Sequence record: PZ452614.1
Length of the DNA stretch: 39,092 nucleotides
Origin: a phage
Reading direction: 5' to 3' (one strand)
The position numbers and the translations under genes were made by a program. Shown here piece by piece: positions 5,887 to 39,092 of this stretch (within the stretch, counting starts at the first letter, position 1; each line of letters opens with the position of its first letter). A model generated the notes under the pieces. That model was not told the origin of the DNA. It saw only the letters and a list, made by a program, of their open reading frames with translations, and searched no databases.

Positions 5887-5991
5887 ATATCTATTCGTAC
5901 CTCAAAGGTAATAAAAAACCAAATATGGTTGATCTTTTTTTTGTGTCAGCACAAAATAACCGTAATCCCAATACTAATAACAGGGCTTACC

Positions 5992-26933: not shown

Positions 26934-28732
26934 GTTACTTTGGCCTTAATCCAGTAAACCAGAATCAGCAGCTTGACGAAGCAGCATTAAATCCAGTTGG
27001 CTTTAACAGCGATGTTGGTTTTTTCGACAATGCTGTAGGAGCGGCATTGTCTGGTTTGTACTCCGGGCTGGTGGCAAAGCCAGATCAGTTGCTATGGGCA
27101 GGGATGGATAAAATCGTATCCCCGATTGCTCAGCTTGTTAACGAAAACACCTCGCTCAATGACACTTCAGTTTCATACATTGCTGAGCAGAGAAAACTAG
27201 CAGAGCAGCAGGTTAAGCGGCTGACGCCTGATGCCGCGACAACCGGAATCGCCGGGCAGGTCCTTTATGGGTTGTTCGATATGGGCGGGCAGGCTGTTGT
27301 CGGTACAACGCTCGGTGGTCCGGTCGGAGGTGCTGCGGCGGTAACTTCTCTACAGGGTTTTTCTGAGTTTGAACGGTTGACAGCACAGGGTGTTGATTTC
27401 AGGACGGCGCAGGAAGCGGGATTAGTGCAGGGTATTACTGCTGGTGCTGGAACACTGATCCCTATGAGCCTCGGGTTACGTGCTGGTGGTGCGCTGGCGG
27501 AAGGTGTGGCGGCTCAGCTTGCGCGGACGGGTGAAAGTTCAGTGCGACGCGCCGCAGCAACAGCAGTACGTGCAACGCCAGATATTGCCTATGCCGCAGG
27601 TACAAATATTGCGTTCGGTATGGCACAGCGTGGGCTTACTGCAAAAACGCTTCGTGATGGTGGCTATAGCGAAATGGCTAACCAGTATGATGTGTTGGAT
27701 CGACAGGCAATTGCTATTGATGCTGTTCTTGGGGTGGCGTTTGGTGGTGTCGGCAGATTTATTAACTCTCGAGGCGAGTCTACAAGCGCACCAAATTTTT
27801 CACCAGTTGATGTCGATGCTGCACTGGCGGCGAATGCCGCTCATCATGCTGAAATTGATATTGCTCCCGGCGTGCCGAGCAACGTGCTTTCGCGCAATTC
27901 TCACATTCAGGCTCTGCGAAAAGCTATGTCTGATGTTAGCCAGGGGAGACCTGTAGACGTTGCCAGCATTGTTGAGTCTGCATCTTTCAGTGAAATTCTA
28001 GGGCGCAAGAGTCTGCTGTCTCAGGCAGTTAATGAGGCTCTGTCATCTGTAGATGATGGAGTAACGGCGCGCGCTATAGAAAATCGGTTGCTTGAAGAAC
28101 AGGCCGCGCAGCTTTTGCCGCGTGGCGATAGACAGGTTTACCAGTCTGAAATCGCTAATAGCCAACGAATTATTGAAAATCTCACTGAACAGCGCGCACA
28201 AATTCTTGCAGAAGAGCCAACCGGTAGCGGTAAGGCTTTATCTCGTGCTCGATCAGATAAACAGGCCAGACTTCGCGATATTGACCAACGAATCCGGCAG
28301 GCACAAGAACGCCTGGAATTTTCTCGTAACGCGTTGGCACCGCATGAGCCTGGTGGTCAGTTTTTTGAAGCTCGAGCAGAACTGGCACGGCGACTGCAGG
28401 TAGAAAGTGAACTTAATGCTCAGGCTGTTTCATTCTATAAAACAGCAGATGTCAGGACGCCAGACGAAGTAGCTCCTTTTGAGCCTGATAAAATATTGCA
28501 ACAGGCAGAACAAAAAATGATGGCGGATCAGGCAGGAGATATTGATCTGCGCATAGCTGAAGACTCGCTGCTTGAATCACCTGACATGATAATTACCGTG
28601 CTGGATGATGATGGTAATCCACAATCGCGCAGCGCGCGTGAAGTACTGGATGAAGCGAACAGGGAAAGTGAGCAGGCAATACAGGATTCCAGCCTGTTTG
28701 ATGTCGCTGTGGCGTGTTTCTTGAGAGGTTAA
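26930..28732 (+). CDS. Internal virion / ejection protein (600 aa)
   Basis: ATGA coupling; Gly/Ala-rich N-terminal half and helical C-terminal half. Confidence 0.55.
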   Translation: MSYFGLNPVNQNQQLDEAALNPVGFNSDVGFFDNAVGAALSGLYSGLVAKPDQLLWAGMDKIVSPIAQLVNENTSLNDTSVSYIAEQRKLAEQQVKRLTPDAATTGIAGQVLYGLFDMGGQAVVGTTLGGPVGGAAAVTSLQGFSEFERLTAQGVDFRTAQEAGLVQGITAGAGTLIPMSLGLRAGGALAEGVAAQLARTGESSVRRAAATAVRATPDIAYAAGTNIAFGMAQRGLTAKTLRDGGYSEMANQYDVLDRQAIAIDAVLGVAFGGVGRFINSRGESTSAPNFSPVDVDAALAANAAHHAEIDIAPGVPSNVLSRNSHIQALRKAMSDVSQGRPVDVASIVESASFSEILGRKSLLSQAVNEALSSVDDGVTARAIENRLLEEQAAQLLPRGDRQVYQSEIANSQRIIENLTEQRAQILAEEPTGSGKALSRARSDKQARLRDIDQRIRQAQERLEFSRNALAPHEPGGQFFEARAELARRLQVESELNAQAVSFYKTADVRTPDEVAPFEPDKILQQAEQKMMADQAGDIDLRIAEDSLLESPDMIITVLDDDGNPQSRSAREVLDEANRESEQAIQDSSLFDVAVACFLRG

Positions 28733-28737
28733 ATTAA

Positions 28738-31212
28738 ATGAGACAGGAATGTATACAAGCGGTCCAGCAGGCGGCGCAGCGCACGTTAACAGCGCGAGAA
28801 ATACAGAACATTGAAGACCGCATTTATCGAAATATGCGCTCCATTGCTCGTGATGACCCGATGTCGTGGAGACAACTTTCCGAATCAGAGCGGCTATATC
28901 GTGCAGCACAATTGGCATCTGAAGAATTACAGCGAGAAGCGGCATTAAAGAAACGTCGTGTGGCCCTCACTATAGCCGCACGTCAGAGATTGGATAAATT
29001 TATCAATAGCTATCAAGGGGCTGATGGGAAACTTGGCGCTCTTAACCGTACTATTGCTTTTAATGCAGACGGTAAATCGAATTTCCTCTCTGTTGAGTCC
29101 AGAACAAAAGCCACTCGTGATTATGCATTGAGTCAATTGCAAGAGGCATTTGAAGCAGTTGATCCTCGCTTTTTTGGCCTGTTTGAAGATGAAGCTGGCG
29201 TGCGTGACCTGGTATATGAAATGCGAGGGCAAAATACTGGCAATGCTAAAGCAAGAAAAGGTGCTAAGGCGTGGAGAGAAGTGACAGATCTACTGCGCCG
29301 CCGGTTTAATGATGCTGGTGGGGACATTGGCTATCTCGAAAACTGGGGGATCCCTCAACATCATTCTATGGAAAAGGTTGGGGCGGTATCAAAGGATAAG
29401 TGGGTTAGCGATGTTATAGGTAAGCTGGATCGCAAATATTATATCCGAGCCGATGGACAACTGATGAACGATGCCGAGTTGTCTGCATTTCTTGGAGAGG
29501 CTTATAACACGATCGCTACTGGTGGGCTGAATAAGCTTACTGATACCGGAATGCGAATTTCCGGCGCACGTGCTAACCGTGGTAATGCATCACGACAGAT
29601 ACATTTCAAAGATGCAGATTCCTATCTGCAATATCAGCAACTTTATGGCGATCGCTCTCTATGGGAAATCATGGTCGGTCACTTGGAAGGTATCAGTAAA
29701 GATATTGCACTGGTGGAAACATATGGCCCAAACCCCGATCATGTTTTCCGCTCTCTTCTTGATCAGGTGAAGGCAGAAACGGCAACAGCTAACCCGAGTA
29801 AAACCGGTAAAGTCGAGCGGCTGGCGAACAACACAGAGAATCTGTACAACTTTATTTCCGGAAAGACACAGCCTGTAGCGAATCCGCACATCTCGCGATG
29901 GTCTGACAATATCCGCAACTGGCTGGTTGCCAGCAGACTCGGATCCGCGTTGCTGTCATCGTTCTCTGATCTTGGAACCATGTATCTGTCTGCGAAGGTT
30001 ACCAACCTTCCAATGAACCAGTTATTCCGCAACCAGCTTGAAGCTATGGACCCAACGAACCGTACAGAACTTGCGCGGGCGCGCCGCGCTGGTCTGGCGA
30101 TGGAATCTCTACTTGGCAGCGTTAACCGCTGGGCGATGGATAATATGGGGCCGTCAGTGTCTCGTTGGGCGGCAACGGCGGTAATGCGTGCCAGTGGGCT
30201 TACAGCATGGTCAGATGCGCACAAGCGCGCCTATGGCGTAACCATGATGGGAAGCCTGGGAGAAGTAGTGTCACGGACACCAGACCTTCGTAGCCTCGAT
30301 GATTCTGATTTTCGTATCCTGAAAAGCAAAGGGATTACTGACACAGACTGGAGCGTATGGAAGTTGGCGCAACAGGAGGACTGGGGGAACGGTAATAATA
30401 CGATGCTGACACCGGAAAGCATTATGCGTATCCCTGATTCAGCAGTTAAACATCTTGGTGAGCCTGAACGCGTGAAGTTTGAGGCAATGCGTAAACTGCT
30501 CGGTGCCGTAACTGAAGAAGTTGATATGGCTGTTATTACACCGGGAGCACGTGAGCAACTGATAACCGGTTCTGGTATTCAGCGTGGAACATGGAAAGGT
30601 GAATTAACGAGAAGTGTTTTCCTGTTTAAATCGTTCCCTATCTCGGTTGTTATGCGTCACTGGTCACGCGCTATGGGTATACCGTCTGCTGGTGGGCGTG
30701 CGGCATATATTGCGACGTTTATTGCCAGTACGACCATTCTTGGCGCTTTGTCGCAGCAACTTAACGACCTTGCGTCTGGTCGTAATCCTCGAGAGATGAC
30801 AGGAGGAGATGCCGCAAAATTCTGGCTTGGTGCTCTACTGAAAGGTGGTGGTCTTGGCCTTTACGGTGACTTTTTATTGTCAGATCACACTAGGTACGGA
30901 AGCGGCGCGCTGGCGTCGATGCTTGGCCCGGTAGCTGGTCTGGTTGATGACGTAGTGAAGATTGCTCAGGGCATACCGTTAAATGCTGTGGAAGGGAAGA
31001 ATGAGCAGACTGGTGGTGATCTGGTTAAGCTGGGGAAAGGTCTGATGCCAGGTGCGAATCTCTGGTACTTAAAGGCGGCTCTCGATCACATGATCTTTAA
31101 CCAGATGCAGGAGTATTTTTCACCAGGTTATTTGCGTAAAATGGAGCAACGTTCGAAGAAAGAGTTTAACCAGACATACTGGTGGCGACCACAGGATGTC
31201 ACTCCGCAATAA
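28738..31212 (+). CDS. Internal virion / ejection protein (824 aa)
   Basis: Size and position; Shine-Dalgarno GAGAGG. Confidence 0.55.
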   Translation: MRQECIQAVQQAAQRTLTAREIQNIEDRIYRNMRSIARDDPMSWRQLSESERLYRAAQLASEELQREAALKKRRVALTIAARQRLDKFINSYQGADGKLGALNRTIAFNADGKSNFLSVESRTKATRDYALSQLQEAFEAVDPRFFGLFEDEAGVRDLVYEMRGQNTGNAKARKGAKAWREVTDLLRRRFNDAGGDIGYLENWGIPQHHSMEKVGAVSKDKWVSDVIGKLDRKYYIRADGQLMNDAELSAFLGEAYNTIATGGLNKLTDTGMRISGARANRGNASRQIHFKDADSYLQYQQLYGDRSLWEIMVGHLEGISKDIALVETYGPNPDHVFRSLLDQVKAETATANPSKTGKVERLANNTENLYNFISGKTQPVANPHISRWSDNIRNWLVASRLGSALLSSFSDLGTMYLSAKVTNLPMNQLFRNQLEAMDPTNRTELARARRAGLAMESLLGSVNRWAMDNMGPSVSRWAATAVMRASGLTAWSDAHKRAYGVTMMGSLGEVVSRTPDLRSLDDSDFRILKSKGITDTDWSVWKLAQQEDWGNGNNTMLTPESIMRIPDSAVKHLGEPERVKFEAMRKLLGAVTEEVDMAVITPGAREQLITGSGIQRGTWKGELTRSVFLFKSFPISVVMRHWSRAMGIPSAGGRAAYIATFIASTTILGALSQQLNDLASGRNPREMTGGDAAKFWLGALLKGGGLGLYGDFLLSDHTRYGSGALASMLGPVAGLVDDVVKIAQGIPLNAVEGKNEQTGGDLVKLGKGLMPGANLWYLKAALDHMIFNQMQEYFSPGYLRKMEQRSKKEFNQTYWWRPQDVTPQ

Positions 31213-31221
31213 GGATGAGAA

Positions 31222-31362
31222 ATGATTGCTTTTATTCTTGTTGTGTTTGCGCTTGTTGCACTTGGCGTTATGAACCGTAAATGTATCATTGACTATGGCG
31301 AATTTGCTGTTGCAGTTATTTTGATATTATCTGGTGTAGCAGGGTACATAGGCTTGTCATAA
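31222..31362 (+). CDS. Small hydrophobic protein (46 aa, two predicted membrane helices)
   Basis: ATG after AAGGATGAGAA; followed by a palindrome and terminator; not in the supplied track. Confidence 0.4.
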   Translation: MIAFILVVFALVALGVMNRKCIIDYGEFAVAVILILSGVAGYIGLS

Positions 31363-31381
31363 CGTGAGCGTGACATGTCAC

Positions 31382-31406
31382 AGGCCGCTTTCGCGGCCTT
31401 GTTTTT
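31382..31406 (+). terminator. Rho-independent terminator ending the structural operon
   Basis: Stem aggccgc/gcggcct with loop tttc, then TGTTTTT. Confidence 0.65.
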
Positions 31407-31522
31407 AACGAATGCCGCCTCCGCCCGTCAGAAGAACCCTGCCTTGTCGTTGATGTACTCCGCGTGCGTCTGGATATCACGCAGGCATTTGCTCACACCG
31501 ACGATGTAGCAGAACATGGTGG

Positions 31523-32107
31523 TCAGCTCCGCCGCCGCGCCTGATACATCATGCCCGTCGTCCTGTTCATCAGCAGTGAGTGCTCCGTCAGGCCGAGAAC
31601 ACCAGACGGCGAATGAATCAGGCTACGGTAGCCGGGCTTCAGTGGGGCACTGTAGGTTTTGTTCTCTATCTTCATCGCCTGCATTACTGCTGACGCCGTG
31701 GCGTTGGCTACCTGGTCGGCAACCATCTTTATGCGTTCTTCCTGCGGGAGCGAGTTTTTAATGTAACTTCCGGTGCGGCGGATCTGAGGAAGAACCTCAC
31801 CTGTAACCCATTTACGAAAGCGGTAGGGGATAGTGCCTGGTGTCACCGCATCGCGGCAGCGGAGGATCAGTGTGTAGAGTCCTGACTCGGAGATGATGAT
31901 CGATTCTTGCTCACCGCCAGGGGTGTCGGTTGAAGCGACACCCTTCTCATCATCATCAAGTTTTCGAACAGCATCTCGATGGTTTGCTATGCCTATAGCC
32001 CGACAAACATCTGAAGCGATAAACCATGGCTCACCATTAATGACGATTACCCGTATATCGGCTTGGGATTCGAAAGAAAAAATGGACGTGCTTTTTGTAG
32101 CTGTCAT
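31523..32107 (-). CDS. Antirepressor with Bro-N domain
   Basis: …FSFESQADIRVIVINGEPWFIASDVCRAIGIANHRDAVRKLDDDEKGV… matches the Bro-N pattern; Shine-Dalgarno AAGGTAA. Confidence 0.8.
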   Translation of the reverse strand: MTATKSTSIFSFESQADIRVIVINGEPWFIASDVCRAIGIANHRDAVRKLDDDEKGVASTDTPGGEQESIIISESGLYTLILRCRDAVTPGTIPYRFRKWVTGEVLPQIRRTGSYIKNSLPQEERIKMVADQVANATASAVMQAMKIENKTYSAPLKPGYRSLIHSPSGVLGLTEHSLLMNRTTGMMYQARRRS

Positions 32108-32263
32108 AGTGGTTACCTTTTAGTCTGGTTAATCACCACTACCTACGCCAATCGGTTGGTGGTGAACTGTGCAGGGTTGGCGTAACCGGCTAAAAGGACC
32201 CGGCGCACCTTTCGGTGCCCCCACACAGCCCACCATAATACGAATGTGACCGTGCTATACGCA

Positions 32264-32284
32264 TAAAAAAACCGCTTGCGCGGT
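32264..32284 (-). terminator. Terminator-like hairpin inside the antirepressor operon spacer
   Basis: Stem accgc/gcggt with loop ttgc, followed on the minus strand by a 7-nt U-run. Confidence 0.45.
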
Positions 32285-32360
32285 GAATGCGCCTTTTAGT
32301 AACCCGGGACGCCAATCCCGGCACTGGATTTTGCCAGTGCCCGATTACTATGGCACAATA

Positions 32361-32401
32361 GGAGTGCTTATATTTACCTTTGCGGTAAATATAAGCACTC
32401 C
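32361..32401. repeat. 41-bp perfect palindrome (18-bp arms, 5-nt centre) with a TTACC-N5-GGTAA core
   Basis: GGAGTGCTTATATTTACC TTTGC GGTAAATATAAGCACTCC read directly. Confidence 0.9.
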
Positions 32402-32419
32402 ACTTGGTAATTGCAAACC

Positions 32420-32677
32420 TTATCTGGTTTGTTTTCGTAATTGTTCGGCACAATAGTCGAGATGTGTTTGCAGATCCCGCATGGACATCTGTGAGCTGGT
32501 GACGTAGTTAATCAGTGCAGTCAGTTCGGCAAGTGGGCCATCGACATTAAATCCATCCTTATCGAGATCCCGGAGTAATTTCATCAAGTGCGATCCCTCC
32601 ACCAGTGACCTGACGCCTCCCGGCGTGTGAATCCTTTCGGTAAATCCGTCTTCCAGTGGATAGTGATACTGCGGCAT
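32420..32677 (-). CDS. Hypothetical protein (85 aa), first gene of the LexA-box-controlled operon
   Basis: ATG at 32677 after GGAGAAG; LexA-like box 22 to 37 nt upstream. Confidence 0.55.
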   Translation of the reverse strand: MPQYHYPLEDGFTERIHTPGGVRSLVEGSHLMKLLRDLDKDGFNVDGPLAELTALINYVTSSQMSMRDLQTHLDYCAEQLRKQTR

Positions 32678-32696
32678 CTTATCTTCTCCATGCAAT

Positions 32697-32716
32697 AACT
32701 GTATAAATACACAGTA
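32697..32716. promoter_or_regulatory. Candidate LexA (SOS) box
   Basis: aaCTGTataaatacACAGta: CTGT-N8-ACAG, 17/20 match to the consensus TACTGTATATATATACAGTA. Confidence 0.7.
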
Positions 32717-32753
32717 GCAAATAATTTGTTTGCTATCCAGCACGTTTTGCGAA

Positions 32754-32820
32754 TCACCTGAAAGGTAATATCTGTTCGTATTTATGTGTTATCTATCCAT
32801 ATGTGGTTTTTCAGGTAATA
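32754..32820. promoter_or_regulatory. Divergent regulatory region: operator-like site and ATGTGGTT / GGTAATA motif before the tailspike
   Basis: TCACC-TGAAA-GGTAA 32754..32768; ATGTGGTT 32801..32808; GGTAATA 32814..32820. Confidence 0.5.
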
Positions 32821-32872
32821 GAATAACCGGATATGCGGCGCAACGGGTGCTGCGACTATCTGGAGATTTAAC

Positions 32873-35500
32873 ATGACGGTCTCAACCGAAGTTAACCACA
32901 ACGAATACACCGGTAACGGTGTTACGACATCATTTCCGTATACCTTTAGGGTTTTCAAGGAATCTGATCTGGTAGTACAGGTTGTTGACCTGAACGATAA
33001 CATCACTGTTCTGACGCTGGATACTGACTACACAGTAACCGGCGCAGGGGGATATGAAGGTGGTAATGTAATACTTGCAACAGCTCTGGCTAATGGTTAC
33101 CAGATTTCCATATCACGTGAACTGTCGGTTACGCAGGAAACAGATCTCCGTAACCAGGGGAAGTTCTTTGCTGAGGTGCATGAGGATGCGTTTGATAAGC
33201 TGACAATGTTGATTCAGCAGGTTCGTAGTTGGTTTAGTCTGGCGCTACGTAAGCCGTCATTTGTTGCTAACTATTACGACGCAATGGACAACTATATTCG
33301 TAACCTTCGTGACCCTGTAAGACCGCAGGATGCGGCTACAAAAAAATATGTTGATGGGGTCGCAGAAACAAACCTGAGCAGAACGCTACGAACCCCTGAG
33401 CCGATACCAGCATTGCCGGGAATTGAGCAACGTAAGAATAAGATTGTTGCAATGGATGATACTGGAAATCCGATAATGGTTTTGCCTGAATCTGGTTCGG
33501 CTACTGATGTAATGATCCAGTTAGCGGCAAATGATGGATTTAAGTTTATTGGTCAGTGCCCTGATATATTGACACTAAGAACAATAGAACCTGAAAAAAA
33601 TGGTCAAAGGATCACGTTGCGACAGCATACGATCGGAACTGGGCTTGGTGGAGGGGTATTCAGAGCTGTACTTGATGGAACTGGCTATACCGATGATGAT
33701 GGTGTTGTAATAAAAACAGCAGGTGGTTCTGTATGGTTACGGGTTAATGCAGATAAGGTTAATCCGTTTATGTTTGGGGCCACTGGCGTGGCTGATGATA
33801 CAGCAGCACTGCAAAAGATGCTTGAATGTGGCAGGGCGGCTGAGCTTGGCACAAATGTCTGGAAAGCATCTAATCTTGAGCTAAATAACAAGTCGTGTTC
33901 ACTATCTGGGTCTGGTCTACACGTTTCCAGGATAGAGCAAATATCTGGGGCAACAGGCGCGTTACTGACAATTACTCAGGATTGCAGCCTGATTTATTTG
34001 TCCGATTGTGGCCTGTATGGGGATGGAATAACTGCGGGAACAAGCGGGGTAACGATGGAGACAGGAAACCCAGGTGGGGCACCAAGCTATCCATTCAATA
34101 CCGCCCCTGACGTTCGTAGGGATCTTTACATTAGCAATGTTCACATTACAGGATTTGACGAGTTAGGATTTGATTATCCTGAAACGAATTTTTCCGTCTC
34201 AACGCATGGATTATTCATAAGAAACATTAAAAAAACCGGGGCTAAGATCGGAACTACCGATTTTACATGGACAAACCTTCAAATTGATACGTGTGGGCAG
34301 GAATGCTTAGTGCTTGATGGTGCTGGTAATTGCAGAATTATAGGTGCCAAATTAATTTGGGCTGGTTCAGAAAATGAAACACCATATTCAGGATTACGTA
34401 TTTCTAATTCACAAAATGTAAACATGACAGGAGTTGAGTTACAGGACTGTGCATACGATGGATTGTATATTAAAAATTCAACTGTTGCTATCAGTGGGTT
34501 GAATACTAACAGAAATAGTGCATCATCAAATCTGTCATACCATAATATGGTTTTTGAAAACAGTATAGTAACTGTAGATGGTTATGTTTGCCGTAACTAT
34601 GCTGCTACATCGCTATATGATCTAAATTCACAAGCCGGAAATGTGAGGTGTATTGGTTCCGATAGTACCGTATTGATAAATGGTATTTACGAGTCAGAAG
34701 TAAACAGCGAACGACTCATGGGTGACAATAATCTTATTCAGCCATATTCTGGTGATTTAATAATAAATGGCCTAAAAAACTATTATACATATACAGGAAG
34801 CGTAAAAAACAATATTCCTACATTTGACGGAGTCGTTACAACCGCAACATATGTAAGCGCTCCTTCGATACTAGGGCAAGGAAACATGCTTAAGTTAACG
34901 CAATCAAACAAGGATAAGTTATTATTTTCTGATAAAGTATCGAGACATGGGTGTACAATCGGCCTTGTTCTAATCCCGTCATTTACGGGTGCAACAACTA
35001 TGACAGCTTTCACTCTGGGGAGTGGATATTCGCCCTCTGGAAACTCTGCTGTTATGCAATTTATAGTTAACTCCAGTGGTGTGCAGACTATAGCAATATT
35101 ATTATCCGGTGATGGTATAACTCAAACGTTAACAAGCGATCTGACAACGGAGCAAGCGTTAGCTTCAGGAGGCGTATATCATTTTGCGATGGGATTCGCT
35201 CCAGGCCGATTATGGTGGTCTATTATTGATATAAATACCGGAAGGCGTATACGACGGGCGTACAGACAACCAGATCTTCACGCCGCATTTAATAGCATAT
35301 TCAACAGCGGAACATCTTCTATCACCGCATTTTCAGGACCATTAGCAGGTGATATTGCATGTGAAGGGGCAGGTTCGCATGTTTATGTTGGCGGTTTCTC
35401 ATCTGAGTCAGACTACGCAGCGAGCAGAATGTACGGATTATTTACCCCAGTAGACCTGGATAAACAATACTCATTCCGCACGCTGAACGGAAATATTTAA
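32873..35500 (+). CDS. Tailspike protein
   Basis: 875 aa; conserved-looking N-terminal domain, then repetitive Gly/Asn/Ser-rich beta-helix-like C-terminal part with lower GC. Confidence 0.8.
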   Translation: MTVSTEVNHNEYTGNGVTTSFPYTFRVFKESDLVVQVVDLNDNITVLTLDTDYTVTGAGGYEGGNVILATALANGYQISISRELSVTQETDLRNQGKFFAEVHEDAFDKLTMLIQQVRSWFSLALRKPSFVANYYDAMDNYIRNLRDPVRPQDAATKKYVDGVAETNLSRTLRTPEPIPALPGIEQRKNKIVAMDDTGNPIMVLPESGSATDVMIQLAANDGFKFIGQCPDILTLRTIEPEKNGQRITLRQHTIGTGLGGGVFRAVLDGTGYTDDDGVVIKTAGGSVWLRVNADKVNPFMFGATGVADDTAALQKMLECGRAAELGTNVWKASNLELNNKSCSLSGSGLHVSRIEQISGATGALLTITQDCSLIYLSDCGLYGDGITAGTSGVTMETGNPGGAPSYPFNTAPDVRRDLYISNVHITGFDELGFDYPETNFSVSTHGLFIRNIKKTGAKIGTTDFTWTNLQIDTCGQECLVLDGAGNCRIIGAKLIWAGSENETPYSGLRISNSQNVNMTGVELQDCAYDGLYIKNSTVAISGLNTNRNSASSNLSYHNMVFENSIVTVDGYVCRNYAATSLYDLNSQAGNVRCIGSDSTVLINGIYESEVNSERLMGDNNLIQPYSGDLIINGLKNYYTYTGSVKNNIPTFDGVVTTATYVSAPSILGQGNMLKLTQSNKDKLLFSDKVSRHGCTIGLVLIPSFTGATTMTAFTLGSGYSPSGNSAVMQFIVNSSGVQTIAILLSGDGITQTLTSDLTTEQALASGGVYHFAMGFAPGRLWWSIIDINTGRRIRRAYRQPDLHAAFNSIFNSGTSSITAFSGPLAGDIACEGAGSHVYVGGFSSESDYAASRMYGLFTPVDLDKQYSFRTLNGNI

Positions 35501-35507
35501 TATAGTT

Positions 35508-35532
35508 GGTTGTCATATTACACGTGACAACC
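35508..35532. terminator. Hairpin between convergent tailspike and acyltransferase genes
   Basis: 8-bp stem ggttgtca/tgacaacc, 9-nt loop, AT-rich flanks on both sides. Confidence 0.45.
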
Positions 35533-36529
35533 CAAATTTTCTTAAAAAAACTACGATGGCTAATGAAATTAAGAACACGATAAAAGAAAGAGGAATAACG
35601 ATAAACATCTCTGGATGGATCGAATATTTATCAAGCAAAAATCTCCTGAGTATGTCAATGATTAATGGATGGACAAGATAAATCCCTAGTGTGCAGGGAG
35701 AAATAAATTTCACTATGTGTAATATCGTTTTGTTTTTAACAGGGGTGTTTATCATGAACACCATAAAACATATTGCAGACATGGCAATAAACAAAGACGA
35801 GTTATCATAAAACATCTGGTTTACCGGTCCCCTGTAAACAGAAATATTCTTTGTTATAAAAGCGGTCGCAAACGTACATGCAGTCAGCATAATGGTTAAC
35901 ATTATTTTTGTTGAGTTTGTCATGTTAACTTGATTATCTAAAATTATCTTCCCTAGAAGCAAGTACACAGCAAGGCTGGAAAATATACTAACTTGAAATA
36001 GATTGTTGATATTTAAATTCAATCCAAGATATACATTTAATAAACTAAAGAATAAAAGAAGCATCCATAACCATACTAAAATTACAACATCTATTTTATT
36101 TGAGTGTAAATAGAATTTACTAAGTAATGGCATAATGATAACGAATCCAATGGCTGCATATAAGTACCACATATGATAGAATATCTGCGATCGAAAAAAT
36201 AAATTAAAAAATGATTTCACATCTATGGGGAAACTATTTACATGTGAACGATATAAGTAATATATCGCCGACCAGAAAAGTAGAATAATGAATAGCCGAT
36301 TTGCTCGTTTTAATGACGAATTCATATTTGTACTTTCTTTAATAAGCAAAGCCCCAGAAATCATAATGAATAACGGTACAGATATTCTGGTAAAAGATTC
36401 TATTATATTTAATATATCCCATCCTGATGAGCCTGTTTCATTCATACCTATAATTACAGAATGAAGAACAACCACCAAAAAGCAAGCAGCCACTCTAATC
36501 AACTCAATATTCAAATTCTTATCTTTCAT
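35513..36529 (-). CDS. Acyltransferase family 3 membrane protein (putative O-antigen acetylase, serotype conversion)
   Basis: 338 aa, multi-pass hydrophobic; N-terminal …ELIRVAACFLVVVLH… motif; markedly low GC. Confidence 0.85.
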   Translation of the reverse strand: MKDKNLNIELIRVAACFLVVVLHSVIIGMNETGSSGWDILNIIESFTRISVPLFIMISGALLIKESTNMNSSLKRANRLFIILLFWSAIYYLYRSHVNSFPIDVKSFFNLFFRSQIFYHMWYLYAAIGFVIIMPLLSKFYLHSNKIDVVILVWLWMLLLFFSLLNVYLGLNLNINNLFQVSIFSSLAVYLLLGKIILDNQVNMTNSTKIMLTIMLTACTFATAFITKNISVYRGPVNQMFYDNSSLFIAMSAICFMVFMINTPVKNKTILHIVKFISPCTLGIYLVHPLIIDILRRFLLDKYSIHPEMFIVIPLSFIVFLISLAIVVFLRKFGLSRVI

Positions 36530-36568
36530 GACCAGGTACGTTAAGCTGTATTATTTCAATAAATAATA

Positions 36569-36639
36569 TCACCTATCGGGTAATTTCGATAGGATCAATT
36601 CTAAGTTATTTTAACCATATATGGTTTATTGTGTATAAT
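36569..36639. promoter_or_regulatory. Divergent control region: operator-like site near the acyltransferase start and an extended -10 promoter for the lysis genes
   Basis: TCACC-TATCG-GGTAA 36569..36583; ATATGGTT 36621..36628; TGTGTATAAT 36630..36639. Confidence 0.5.
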
Positions 36640-36688
36640 GGACTCACCAACTAAGGGGGTTCTTTATGCACAGTAAACGGTGGTAATT

Positions 36689-37093
36689 ATGTCAGCAGGG
36701 CTAACCAGTGAGTCATTAAATCAGTGGCTTAGCATGGGGTCTCTTGCTGCAGTAATTGCAGGTGTTCCGCCAGAAGTTGCGCTTGGTGCTCTGGCTGGTG
36801 CGGTAATCTTTGTTACCTCGGCAGTTGAGTATCCAATCCGTCGCCGCGTGCTCCTGTCGTTGCTCAGCTTCCTCTGCGGCCTTCTCTTCTACAAACCCAC
36901 AGCGTCGATCCTTATCGGCTTTGCCAGCCTGATCCCTACCATCACTCAGGACTCTTTCGAGAAAGGGATCGTCTTCTCTGCTGGCGCATTCGTGTCAGCA
37001 ATAGTCGCAGTGCGCATTGGCATCTGGCTCTATCACCGTTCTGACAATCCACGCGAGTTAATTCCGGGGAGAAAAGACGATGACAACTCATGA
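36689..37093 (+). CDS. Holin (putative)
   Basis: Hydrophobic segments; ATG at 36689 after GGTGG; first gene of the lysis cassette. Confidence 0.6.
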   Translation: MSAGLTSESLNQWLSMGSLAAVIAGVPPEVALGALAGAVIFVTSAVEYPIRRRVLLSLLSFLCGLLFYKPTASILIGFASLIPTITQDSFEKGIVFSAGAFVSAIVAVRIGIWLYHRSDNPRELIPGRKDDDNS

Positions 37094-37388
37094 GCTGCTT
37101 TTGCTTATTGCTAATGCGGTTATCTGTTCATGTATAGCGATCCGCGTCGGTACGTTCCGGCGTAACGGTTCACAACATCGCAGATGGGGAGGGTGGATCG
37201 CTTACTTCCTCATTGTGGCCGCTGCCAGCATCCCGGTACGTGCCGCGTACGCTTTCTGGTACCACACGCCAATGACCGACGATCTTTCGGAGGTTGTCAT
37301 CAACGCTGTCATGCTTGCCGCCGTTCTGAAAACCCGCGGTAACGTCGTGCAGATTTTCAAAATAACGAGGTCTCAACATGGAGATTAA
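37080..37388 (+). CDS. Second holin-like membrane protein
   Basis: 102 aa with two or three hydrophobic segments; overlaps the holin stop. Confidence 0.5.
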   Translation: MTTHELLLLIANAVICSCIAIRVGTFRRNGSQHRRWGGWIAYFLIVAAASIPVRAAYAFWYHTPMTDDLSEVVINAVMLAAVLKTRGNVVQIFKITRSQHGD

Positions 37389-38007
37389 ACAATTCCAGCG
37401 AGCTGCTGGTATTAGCGAGGCGCTGGCCGCACGCTGGTTCTCGCATATAACTTCTGCGATGAAAGAGTTTGGTATCAGCAAAGCTGAAGATCAGGCAATG
37501 TTTATTGCTCAGGTCGGGCATGAGTCTGGTGGTTTCATCCGGTTGCAGGAGAATTTCAACTACAGTGTCACCGGACTGGCTAACTTCGTTCGGGCTGGGC
37601 GTCTCGCTCAGGGACAGGCCAACGCATTGGGTCGCCGCGCAGGCGAACCTCCATTGCCACTCGAGCGCCAGAGAGCGATCGCCAATCTGGTGTACAGCAA
37701 ACGCATGGGTAACAATGCTCCCGGCGATGGCTGGAATTACCGTGGGCGCGGGCTTATCCAGATTACCGGTTTGAATAACTATCGTGATTGCGGAAACGGT
37801 CTGAAGGTTGACCTGCTGGAGAGCCCTGAATTGCTGGCGCATGACGAATATGCGGCTCGTAGCGCAGCGTGGTTCTTTGCCAGCAAAGGATGCATGAAGT
37901 ATACCGGCGATATTGCACGTGTAACTCTGATTATCAATGGTGGCCGGAACGGCATCGACGACCGGCGCGCGCGGTACATCACTGCCAGTAAGGTGCTGGC
38001 GGTATGA
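37378..38007 (+). CDS. Endolysin, glycoside hydrolase family 19
   Basis: …FIAQVGHESGGF… and …NYRGRGLIQITG… GH19 motifs. Confidence 0.88.
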   Translation: MEIKQFQRAAGISEALAARWFSHITSAMKEFGISKAEDQAMFIAQVGHESGGFIRLQENFNYSVTGLANFVRAGRLAQGQANALGRRAGEPPLPLERQRAIANLVYSKRMGNNAPGDGWNYRGRGLIQITGLNNYRDCGNGLKVDLLESPELLAHDEYAARSAAWFFASKGCMKYTGDIARVTLIINGGRNGIDDRRARYITASKVLAV

Positions 38008-38486
38008 TCTGGGCATTCGCAAAAGCATACTGGAAACAGTTAATTATCGTGGTGATGCTTGCTGTTCTGGTCATATCCGGAATTGTTGCTTGGAATGTGC
38101 ACGGTAGCCGTCAGTACGACGCCGGGTATGTGCAGGCGAAGGAAGAGCGCAAAGCCGAAGATGAGAAAGTTCGTCAGCACTACGAACAGGAGAAAGCGAT
38201 CAATGAACGTGAAGCGCAGCAGAGGATCGACCAGGCGCGCAATGATGCTCTTGATGCTGCCGCTCGCGCTGGCCGGTTGCAGAAACAGCTCGTTGCCATC
38301 CGTGAGCAGCTCAGGCAGTATAACGCCATTGTCGGCGCTGGGACGTCAGCCGCAGACACCGGAGTTTTGCTTGCCGACGTGCTCAGCAAATCTCTCGAGA
38401 GAAACAGACAACTGGCAGAGTATGCTGACCGGGCAGCCGAAGCCGGAAGAGTCTGCGAAAAACAGTATGACACCCTGACAAGATAG
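38004..38486 (+). CDS. i-spanin (Rz-like)
   Basis: N-terminal membrane helix, coiled-coil periplasmic domain; follows the endolysin. Confidence 0.65.
   Translation: MIWAFAKAYWKQLIIVVMLAVLVISGIVAWNVHGSRQYDAGYVQAKEERKAEDEKVRQHYEQEKAINEREAQQRIDQARNDALDAAARAGRLQKQLVAIREQLRQYNAIVGAGTSAADTGVLLADVLSKSLERNRQLAEYADRAAEAGRVCEKQYDTLTR
38242..38478 (+). CDS. o-spanin (Rz1-like) embedded in the +1 frame of the i-spanin gene
   Basis: MMLLMLPLALAGC lipobox signal; Pro/Ser-rich mature part. Confidence 0.6.
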   Translation: MMLLMLPLALAGCRNSSLPSVSSSGSITPLSALGRQPQTPEFCLPTCSANLSRETDNWQSMLTGQPKPEESAKNSMTP

Positions 38487-38659
38487 CATGGCATTTTTCA
38501 TGGTACTGATTTCCGGTGACGGTATATAAAACGGTACTAAAAAAATGAAGTTTTGGAAAAATGTTATCACTCAATTGGTTATGGTTGCCGTAAATAATTG
38601 AGTGGGAATGATTAACAGCTAACTCATAGCAACTCATTCCTATTCAGATACTAATTTAA

Positions 38660-38690
38660 CCCTCTGTTTTTACAGAGGGTTTTTGTTTTT
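38660..38690 (+). terminator. Rho-independent terminator after the lysis cassette
   Basis: Stem ccctctg/cagaggg with loop ttttta, then TTTTTGTTTTT. Confidence 0.7.
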
Positions 38691-38746
38691 ATGTATTCAT
38701 TTCTATTCACTCTACACCATATTTTTCGGCGGTACAGGTGACGGTA

Positions 38747-38761
38747 TTACCTTAAAGGTAT
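38747..38761. promoter_or_regulatory. Operator-like site upstream of the integrase gene
   Basis: TTACC-TTAAA-GGTAT (one mismatch), 43 bp before the integrase start. Confidence 0.4.
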
Positions 38762-38803
38762 ACTCTCATACCGTCATGAAAATGGTTTTTATACGGGTGA
38801 ATT

Positions 38804-39092
38804 GTGCTTACCGATACAAAATTAAAAAACCTCAAGCCACAGGACAAACTGTACAAAGTTTCCGATCGTGACGGGCTGTATGTAGCTGTGCTTACGTCAG
38901 GTACGGTCTCGTTTCGCTATGACTACCGTATCAACGGTCGCCGCGAAACACTGGTAATCGGGCAGTATGGGCGTGACGGTATCAGCCTGGCAGAAGCGCG
39001 AGAAGAACTGATTGCTGCAAAGAAGCTGCTTAAAGCAGGCCAGTCACCGGCTGCGGCTAAACGTGACGGTATCAAAAAGATTCGTGGTGCCG
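38804..39092 (+). CDS. int: Tyrosine integrase, N-terminal part (runs off the window end; continues at 1..962)
   Basis: GTG start; …LTDTKLKNLKPQDKLYKVSDRDGLYVAV… matches the P4/IntA-family N-terminus; 96 codons plus 1 nt, which completes a codon with positions 1-2. Confidence 0.85.
   Translation, partial: MLTDTKLKNLKPQDKLYKVSDRDGLYVAVLTSGTVSFRYDYRINGRRETLVIGQYGRDGISLAEAREELIAAKKLLKAGQSPAAAKRDGIKKIRGA

Follow-up and report, generated by a model that had tools for sequence, protein, structure and literature searches.

Tailspike and O-acetyltransferase genes of phage phiV10

We analyzed a 39,092-nucleotide stretch of phage DNA (sequence record PZ452614.1, hereafter the window), concentrating on positions 32,873 to 36,639, where a plus-strand tailspike gene is followed by the convergent O-antigen acetyltransferase gene oac (Table 1). 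A megablast search returned 100% identity to phage phiV10 (DQ126339.2 / NC_007804.2) over the full 32500-37200, and two O157 typing phages matched this interval at the identical level. Compared with the 39,104-bp phiV10 record, the window is circularly permuted: it begins at record position 27216 and lacks the last 12 nt of that record. Phage phiV10 is a temperate podovirus of the genus Uetakevirus that infects Escherichia coli O157:H7, and the region agrees with the phage of Perry et al. (2009; NC_007804.2) in sequence, genes, orientation and reported function. We are confident that it represents the host-recognition and lysogenic-conversion module of phiV10, composed of the receptor-binding domain (RBD) of the tailspike and of oac. 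Since experiments on phiV10 oac have been published, the feature is already known and experimentally characterized; the small additions made here are evidence of en-bloc exchange and a recurring two-palindrome module.

Table 1. Features of the tailspike-oac region in window coordinates (RBD, receptor-binding domain; ORF, open reading frame; GC3, GC content at third codon positions; a dot marks a feature without strand).
Feature	Position	Strand	Basis or remark
PhiV10p25, tailspike, 875 aa	32873..35500	+	ORF; "tail fiber protein" in NC_007804.2; PHROG 4818, tail fiber
Uetakevirus anchor (particle-binding) domain, aa 1-205; backbone DNA	32873..33487	+	DNA homology, GC3, PMC10408124
Recent exchange block: RBD, oac and regulatory spacer	33134..36670	.	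98.7% identity to Salmonella enterica Uetakevirus prophage L002
Receptor-binding/O157-glycosidase module (RBD), aa 221-875, CBA120 TSP2 homologue	33533..35500	+	phmmer, blastn junction, GC3
Active-site codons D463, E522, D525, R547, Y576	34259..34600	+	alignment to TSP2 D506, E568, D571, R594, Y623
Recombinant patch, tailspike aa 710-845	35000..35407	+	96-99% nt identity to P22-like prophage L006; GC back to ~0.45
Terminator-like hairpin and T-run for tailspike transcript	35508..35532	+	consensus scan; RNA fold -12 kcal/mol, z = -3.1
PhiV10p26, oac, 338 aa	35513..36529	-	GenBank annotation; Pfam PF01757; PHROG 3333
Operator-like palindrome ATCACCTATCGGGTAAT	36568..36584	.	one mismatch to ATTACC-N5-GGTAAT; backbone element
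Promoter-like TTAACC-17-TATAAT facing lysis cassette	36611..36639	+	scan; contains perfect palindrome AACCATATATGGTT (36613-36626)

The oac product matched the Pfam profile PF01757 Acyl_transf_3 with E = 5.8e-36 (124.6 bits; cut-off 31) and over its full length, residues 6-327 covering profile positions 2-322 of 326; the match to PHROG 3333 "O-acetyltransferase" reached E = 1.8e-54. The protein carries R12-X10-H23 (RVAACFLVVVLH) and R75-A-N-R78. The corresponding motifs of AT3 enzymes, as given in a review, are R/K-X10-H in the first transmembrane segment and RXXR in the first cytoplasmic loop (PMC9558356). A crude hydropathy estimate of the number of transmembrane segments gave twelve Kyte-Doolittle-19 peaks above 1.6, which merge to ~9-10 hydrophobic segments. 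Oac is an AT3-only protein, its 338 aa being too few for a fused SGNH domain (the cargo of phage Tyrion has 624 aa), and no relative was found among the solved structures in PDB at E <= 0.1. The annotation of NC_007804.2 notes that Oac acetylates the host O-antigen and has a role in superinfection immunity. The evidence for acetylation and immunity comes from the literature: the phiV10 O-acetyltransferase alters the O157 antigen, and wild-type O157:H7 expressing it gave no phiV10 plaques (Perry et al., 2009, as cited in PMC11854483 and PMC9558356). A first-pass annotation made from the sequence alone had proposed a serotype-conversion and superinfection-exclusion role, and the oac work quoted in these two papers bears it out.

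The tailspike consists of two parts. The first 205 aa of the phiV10 tailspike served as the Uetakevirus anchor in a 2023 study, which also lists the phiV10 receptor-binding protein as experimentally verified O157-specific (PMC10408124). Over its first ~200 residues, the protein matches the N-terminal part of PDB 28lx (Dpo31/Dpo36). At the DNA level, homology of the anchor to epsilon15, Tyrion, SPN1S, phiv142-3 and EC.W1-9 stops between 33307 and 33516.

The remainder is homologous to TSP2 (ORF211; PDB 5w6p, 6w4q), the O157-specific tailspike of the Kuttervirus CBA120. A phmmer search aligned aa 201-874 to TSP2 with E of about 1e-198 (4.9e-198 to 6w4q), and the phiV10 RBD is 57% identical in amino acids to a Kuttervirus TSP2. 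All five TSP2 active-site residues are identical in phiV10. According to a mutagenesis study, the catalytic apparatus of TSP2 comprises Asp506/Asp571 together with Glu568, Tyr623 and Arg594 (PMC7506556). The two tailspikes differ in the N-terminal attachment region, which in CBA120 belongs to the branched tailspike protein complex of a myovirus, and the chloride-binding Asn565 of TSP2 corresponds to Thr519 in phiV10. Only one 263-bp stretch (33524-33786, 74.5%) could be aligned to Kuttervirus TSP2 as DNA, which indicates that the relationship is old. The alignment predicts that the phiV10 RBD is a trimeric β-helix type glycosidase of the TSP2 kind that cleaves the O157 polysaccharide. In the lytic Kuttervirus phage 241, TSP2 is flanked by another tail fiber gene on its upstream side and by a long hypothetical ORF on its downstream side, and the locus contains no acetyltransferase. 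The hairpin and T-run at the end of the phiV10 tailspike gene overlap the 3' end and stop codon of the convergent oac and look like the tailspike terminator.

We propose that a genus-conserved anchor (aa 1 to ~205) has been fused to an imported β-helix glycosidase of CBA120 TSP2 type (aa 221-875), which would bind and cleave the E. coli O157 O-antigen, and that the convergent oac directly downstream supplies an AT3-only acyltransferase of the inner membrane. In a lysogen Oac would O-acetylate the O157 repeat unit. The acetylated antigen, probably through a steric block, would no longer be accepted as receptor by the phiV10 tailspike, and the outcome would be serotype modification and exclusion of superinfecting phiV10.

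A similar arrangement occurs in the Shigella phage Sf6 (Lederbergvirus), where the tailspike is followed by an annotated terminator and a convergent AT3-only O-acetyltransferase of ~335 aa. The AT3 review reports that O-antigen acetylation hinders the phage's own tailspike and so gives superinfection immunity (PMC9558356). The Sf6 and phiV10 Oac proteins are only distant relatives: a pairwise alignment covers 96 N-terminal residues at 31% identity (E = 5e-4), and no tblastn match between them was found at 1e-5. The two systems differ in substrate, which for Sf6 is the rhamnose of the S. flexneri O-antigen (the Sf6 tailspike is an endorhamnosidase), and in neighborhood: Sf6 oac adjoins int, whereas phiV10 oac adjoins the lysis cassette.

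The cargo slot and the palindromes upstream of oac

Between the tailspike stop codon and the conserved spacer and gp23-holin-endolysin cassette, Uetakevirus genomes have a slot for minus-strand O-antigen modifiers, and phiV10 oac fits this pattern. The slot of Tyrion holds a 624-aa AT3-SGNH acetylase and that of SPN1S acetylase fragments plus GtrA, both on the minus strand; phiv142-3 and EC.W1-9 have a small plus-strand ORF only. The Salmonella phage epsilon15, of the same genus, resembles phiV10 in the slot itself, in strand, in the regulatory spacer and in the purpose of altering the O-antigen that the tailspike recognizes. Its minus-strand cargo (gp21/gp22) is different, a Wzy-like O-antigen polymerase and a small polymerase inhibitor, and its RBD is unrelated to that of phiV10 beyond the anchor. 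To the right of oac, backbone homology restarts at 36549 (SPN1S), 36560 (Tyrion) and 36613-36615 (epsilon15, phiv142-3 and EC.W1-9). All these points lie upstream of the oac ATG, at distances of 20-85 bp. The low-GC module of RBD and oac sits in this slot, with the anchor part of the tailspike gene on one side and the lysis genes on the other, and the transcription signals beside oac would come from the backbone spacer and not from the module.

The first-pass annotation had credited the acyltransferase with an operator-like site of its own (36569-36583). The operator-like character of this site was confirmed. Allowing <=2 mismatches, the window contains 15 sites of the type ATTACC-N5-GGTAAT vs. 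0.92 expected, a number reached in 0 of 100 shuffles. Most of these sites are intergenic, including sites on both sides of the repressor gene and upstream of the tailspike and integrase genes, and in the epsilon15 record the motif, which stands ahead of the tail fiber gene, is marked as a repressor-binding site. The assignment to the acyltransferase was not upheld. The site is kept at equal position in Tyrion and SPN1S and is more diverged in epsilon15, although the cargo differs, and it is not included in the DNA that phiV10 has in common with the oac cassettes of P22-like prophages (described below), which ends at 36426-36514.

The site also forms part of a larger unit. The second palindrome, AACCATATATGGTT, occurs five times in the window (<=2 mismatches) vs. 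0.11 expected. Every copy has an ATTACC-type site 21-54 bp to its left and a -10-like TAAT after it. Its core, CCATA-N2-TGGTTTAT, is invariant in the aligned Uetakeviruses. The paired sites (ATTACC-type / AACCATATATGGTT) are located at 5896/5917, 15128/15182, 32373/32416, 32753/32795 and 36568/36613; of the four copies other than the one beside oac, at least three stand directly ahead of plus-strand genes (tailspike, p06 and p42). This bipartite unit looks like a phage-specific regulated promoter class. As the ATTACC-type site is conserved next to different cargo and recurs in such units, we do not regard it as the acyltransferase's own. It is a candidate repressor operator and a genuine regulatory-looking element of the backbone, for which membership in the lysis-side promoter module is the simplest interpretation.

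That the palindrome at 36568-36584 is the operator of oac itself, with the phage repressor or some other regulator binding there, is unlikely in our view, though several observations speak for it. The palindrome lies 39 bp upstream of the oac ATG and is one mismatch away from the epsilon15 motif; an equivalent site is found ~42 bp upstream of epsilon15 gp22, and hence every slot cargo gene adjoins such a site. However, the cassette DNA shared with the P22-like loci ends before the site is reached, and the backbone homology to SPN1S and Tyrion restarts early enough to take it in. The site is moreover the left half of a unit that precedes plus-strand genes (tailspike, p06, p42 and the lysis genes), with a further copy at 32373. 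A search for exact TTACC-N5-GGTAA in the P22-like loci L005-L010 found no site, which is weak evidence because the phiV10 site itself has a mismatch. The best promoter-like match on the minus strand is TATACA-18-TAAAAT at 36637-36608.

Two RNA structures were noted in this spacer. We set aside the idea that a hairpin CCTATCG-N8-CGATAGG (36572-36593; -9.4 kcal/mol, z = -2.5) acts on the minus strand as a terminator or attenuator within the oac leader, because the operator-type palindrome contains the left arm and loop of the hairpin and Tyrion keeps the right arm without the bases that pair in the left arm. On the plus strand, 36600-36690 folds into a long hairpin (-32.1 kcal/mol, z = -6.1) that buries a Shine-Dalgarno sequence, AAGGGGG, and a 6-codon mini-ORF (ATGCACAGTAAACGGTGGTAA, 36667-36687) ahead of the gp27 start at 36689. 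This stretch is nearly invariant across Uetakeviruses, and the homologous stretch of epsilon15 is annotated as an RNase III site.

Evidence for joint exchange of the receptor-binding domain and oac

In a tblastn search of a phage collection (E <= 1e-5), full-length Oac matches at 99-100% came only from phiV10-type records, and the remaining six matches had 24-32% identity. A search of a 5.8-billion-sequence protein collection found a 99% cluster, which corresponds to a phiV10-like Uetakevirus prophage in Salmonella, and, as the closest homologues besides this cluster, proteins of 51-55% identity from Salmonella enterica and Citrobacter braakii. The latter are all encoded in P22-like prophages, next to int and convergent with a tailspike or a tailspike remnant. 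More distant relatives (38% in Proteus, 33% in Aeromonas) sit in prophages or prophage remnants. An origin of oac in a host O-antigen locus is unsupported, as the close homologues are all prophage-borne behind tailspikes; no link to such loci emerged.

The tailspike of the P22-like prophages is a P22-type head-binding domain fused to a phiV10-type RBD. Its aa 122-776 are 89% identical to phiV10 aa 221-875 (88-89% for locus L006). In the P22-like prophages L005-L010 of S. enterica and C. braakii, the RBD has 76-89% aa identity to phiV10, and a convergent Oac of the same clade (49-55% aa) follows at a distance of 12-18 nt. These loci differ from phiV10 in having the P22-type head-binding domain and backbone, and their oac is flanked by int and not by lysis genes. 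The blastn junction with these prophages falls at 33532/33533, and in the P22-like Salmonella prophages a single blastn alignment, 33533-36426, spans the RBD, the spacer and oac. One of the P22-like loci, L009 (C. braakii GCA_002918575.1, 8001-9826), carries an oac homologue (51% aa) adjoining int and a 260-aa C-terminal tailspike remnant; no other phage genes were called in it, and it looks like a P22-like prophage that has decayed but kept the acetyltransferase.

A more recent exchange was detected against the phiV10-like Uetakevirus prophage (L002-L004; S. enterica GCA_010755495.1 and two Logan assemblies). The backbone of L002 is about 80% identical to phiV10 (flanks about 75-80%), whereas the block covering RBD, oac and spacer shows 46 differences in 3,361 bp (33300-36660). 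Mismatches per 100 bp number ~25 up to 33133, ~1 up to ~36670 and 4-18 thereafter. Synonymous divergence (dS) between phiV10 and L002 is 0.39 in the anchor and 0.03 in both RBD and oac. A 98.7% block with sharp edges in an ~80% backbone indicates that RBD and oac move as a block, and from the alignment we interpret 33134-36670 as a recent whole-block exchange through conserved flanks. The module would be swapped by homologous recombination, in anchor-coding DNA on the left and in the regulatory spacer or lysis genes on the right.

The module itself is mosaic. Against the P22-like locus L006, nucleotide identity is 77-88% upstream of the patch 35000-35407 and 48-68% in oac; dS is 0.04 in the patch, ~1.0 in the adjacent tailspike segments and 1.78 in oac. 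The patch points to a recent gene conversion inside the C-terminal domain, so recombination also breaks inside the module. Non-synonymous divergence (dN) between phiV10 and the P22-like copies is 0.07 for the RBD and 0.36 for Oac, which suggests that Oac changes about five times faster than the RBD at non-synonymous sites. The first-pass annotation held that the RBD and the acyltransferase had been acquired as a pair. Joint transfer is supported by the contiguous alignment and the 98.7% block; a single homogeneous import is not, given the amino acid identities to L006 of 88% for the RBD, 98% for aa 710-845 and 55% for Oac.

We also considered that RBD and oac were captured independently, the slot being a general landing pad, and that their pairing arose by later selection and not by joint transfer. 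The cargo of the slot is indeed unrelated in epsilon15, SPN1S and Tyrion, and phiv142-3 and EC.W1-9 lack cargo; the P22-like copy has diverged unequally (RBD 88% aa, dS 1.0; Oac 55% aa, dS 1.8), the 98% patch inside the tailspike shows that the module can be broken by recombination, and distant Oac relatives in Proteus lie behind a different tailspike. Nevertheless, the DNA alignment is unbroken over both genes and the 12-nt spacer in four P22-like loci, and the nearest Oac relatives below the 99% cluster all lie beside the same RBD subtype or its remnant. Identities across three lineages rank alike (RBD 88, 79 and 76%; Oac 55, 53 and 49%), and the 3.5-kb block of 98.7% identity takes in both genes. 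Independent capture seems unlikely.

We lean slightly toward a broader proposal, in which RBD and Oac form a self-contained "key plus lock-changer" module. It would be passed en bloc between two unrelated groups of temperate podoviruses, the Uetakevirus and P22-like lineages, by recombination in the conserved flanks, across E. coli O157, Salmonella (presumably O30) and Citrobacter, with the Oac half evolving the faster of the two, and the promoter module in the spacer might tie expression of the cargo to the phage circuit. The O157 polysaccharide is reported to be structurally identical to the polysaccharides of Salmonella O30 and Citrobacter sedlakii 6070 (PMC6562859). The spread of the module over prophages of E. 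coli O157, Salmonella and Citrobacter fits this shared O-polysaccharide chemistry.

Several points weigh against reading the region as a conversion module that travels as one unit. The evidence for acetylation and immunity is second-hand, drawn from citing papers and a GenBank note, and the AT3 review lists phiV10 oac as a serotype-converting acetylase with the sugar position reported as unidentified (PMC9558356). Acetylation would have to hinder binding or cleavage by the tailspike and not some later step, and the Salmonella and Citrobacter hosts are presumed to belong to the O30/O157-type serogroup. The divergence of RBD and Oac from the P22-like copies is very unequal, so that "one unit" strictly applies to the recent Uetakevirus-to-Uetakevirus exchange. 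Finally, if the TATACA-18-TAAAAT promoter is real, the operator-like site falls in the oac leader, a poor fit with constitutive expression in the lysogen.

Among 5,426 complete E. coli genomes, the RBD-oac block was present in two, both O157:H7 (strains TT12A and TT12B). Together with its presence in Salmonella and Citrobacter prophages, this suggests that escape through acetylation is at present uncommon in E. coli, with a reservoir in other genera. Because phiV10 serves as an O157:H7 reporter and typing phage, its receptor module and oac immunity matter for false negatives in such assays: O157 strains with a phiV10 prophage or oac would escape detection by phiV10, and strains with oac might also escape cocktails of Kutterviruses with TSP2-type tailspikes. 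The current understanding of lysogenic conversion is unchanged, and the added observations are of modest practical value.

Base composition and other features of the window

The first-pass annotation had estimated by eye a drop from ~45-50% to ~30-36% GC over 34100-36583, and these figures proved accurate. The GC content is 0.490 in the whole window and 0.500 in the backbone outside 32873-36679. At 0.360, 34100-36583 is lower than all equal-length backbone windows (0 of 608 as low; mean 0.501, standard deviation 0.014, z = -9.8). An unsupervised three-segment maximum-likelihood fit of 30000-39092 placed change-points at 34125 and 36725 (enclosed GC 0.357), nearly equal to the coordinates estimated by eye.

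The stretch is not a single uniform island, however. A first trough lies in the tailspike β-helix (34100-34999, GC 0.372, z = -5.7) and includes the active-site codons; the second is oac (0.309, z = -8.9), followed by the intergenic 36530-36679 at 0.333. They are separated by tailspike positions 35000-35500, where GC is 0.445 and inside the backbone spread. The models with the best Bayesian information criterion (5-6 segments) have a break at 32350, a single segment of 0.428 over 32350-35499 and one of 0.309 over 35500-36649.

Codon positions moved the left edge of the module. Backbone genes of >=100 aa have a GC3 of 0.512 +/- 0.054, compared with 0.324 for tailspike aa 221-875 and 0.322 for oac; the anchor part (aa 1-220) has 0.427. 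In tailspike aa 221-410 (33533-34102), GC3 is already 0.358 while total GC is 0.463, kept up by the GC at second codon positions (GC2) of a Gly/Ala/Thr-rich sequence. The foreign composition thus starts near 33533, ~570 bp to the left of the drop in total GC, and both GC3 and the homology breakpoints place the module edge there (aa 221) and not at 34100.

It is very improbable that the low GC reflects protein make-up (an Ile/Leu/Phe/Asn-rich membrane protein and an Asn/Ser-rich β-helix) and not foreign origin: Oac does contain 14.5% Leu, 13.6% Ile and 8.9% Phe, GC at the first codon position (0.319) and GC2 (0.286) of oac are very low, and P22-like and Kuttervirus homologues show the dip in GC of tailspike aa 501-650 at the aligned positions too (0.30-0.41), so that part of the GC profile travels with the protein sequence, but GC3 is low in both genes as well, the compositional edges match sharp homology breakpoints against relatives, and gp27 and the holin, also membrane proteins, have GC contents of 0.53 and 0.52, so that membrane-protein composition alone does not explain the low GC of oac.

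The stretch 38525-38824, located between the integrase gene and the Rz/Rz1 terminator, forms a second, short low-GC segment (0.33). This segment presumably represents attP, and an ATTACC-type site lies inside it at 38746.

Two further groups of features lie outside the tailspike-oac region. Rfam matches to C4 antisense RNA (32155-32240, minus strand, 77.7 bits) and isrK (32265-32340, minus strand, 75.9 bits; gathering scores) are located directly upstream of a Bro-N/antirepressor ORF (31523-32107, minus strand), an arrangement which suggests that an antirepressor is under the control of an antisense-RNA immunity circuit of the P1/P7 style. The phiV10 Bro-N/C4/isrK region (about 31300-32430) has no counterpart in the L002-L004 prophage. 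A tRNA gene (14733-14806, minus strand; Rfam, 73.3 bits) occupies the gap between PhiV10p04 and p06.

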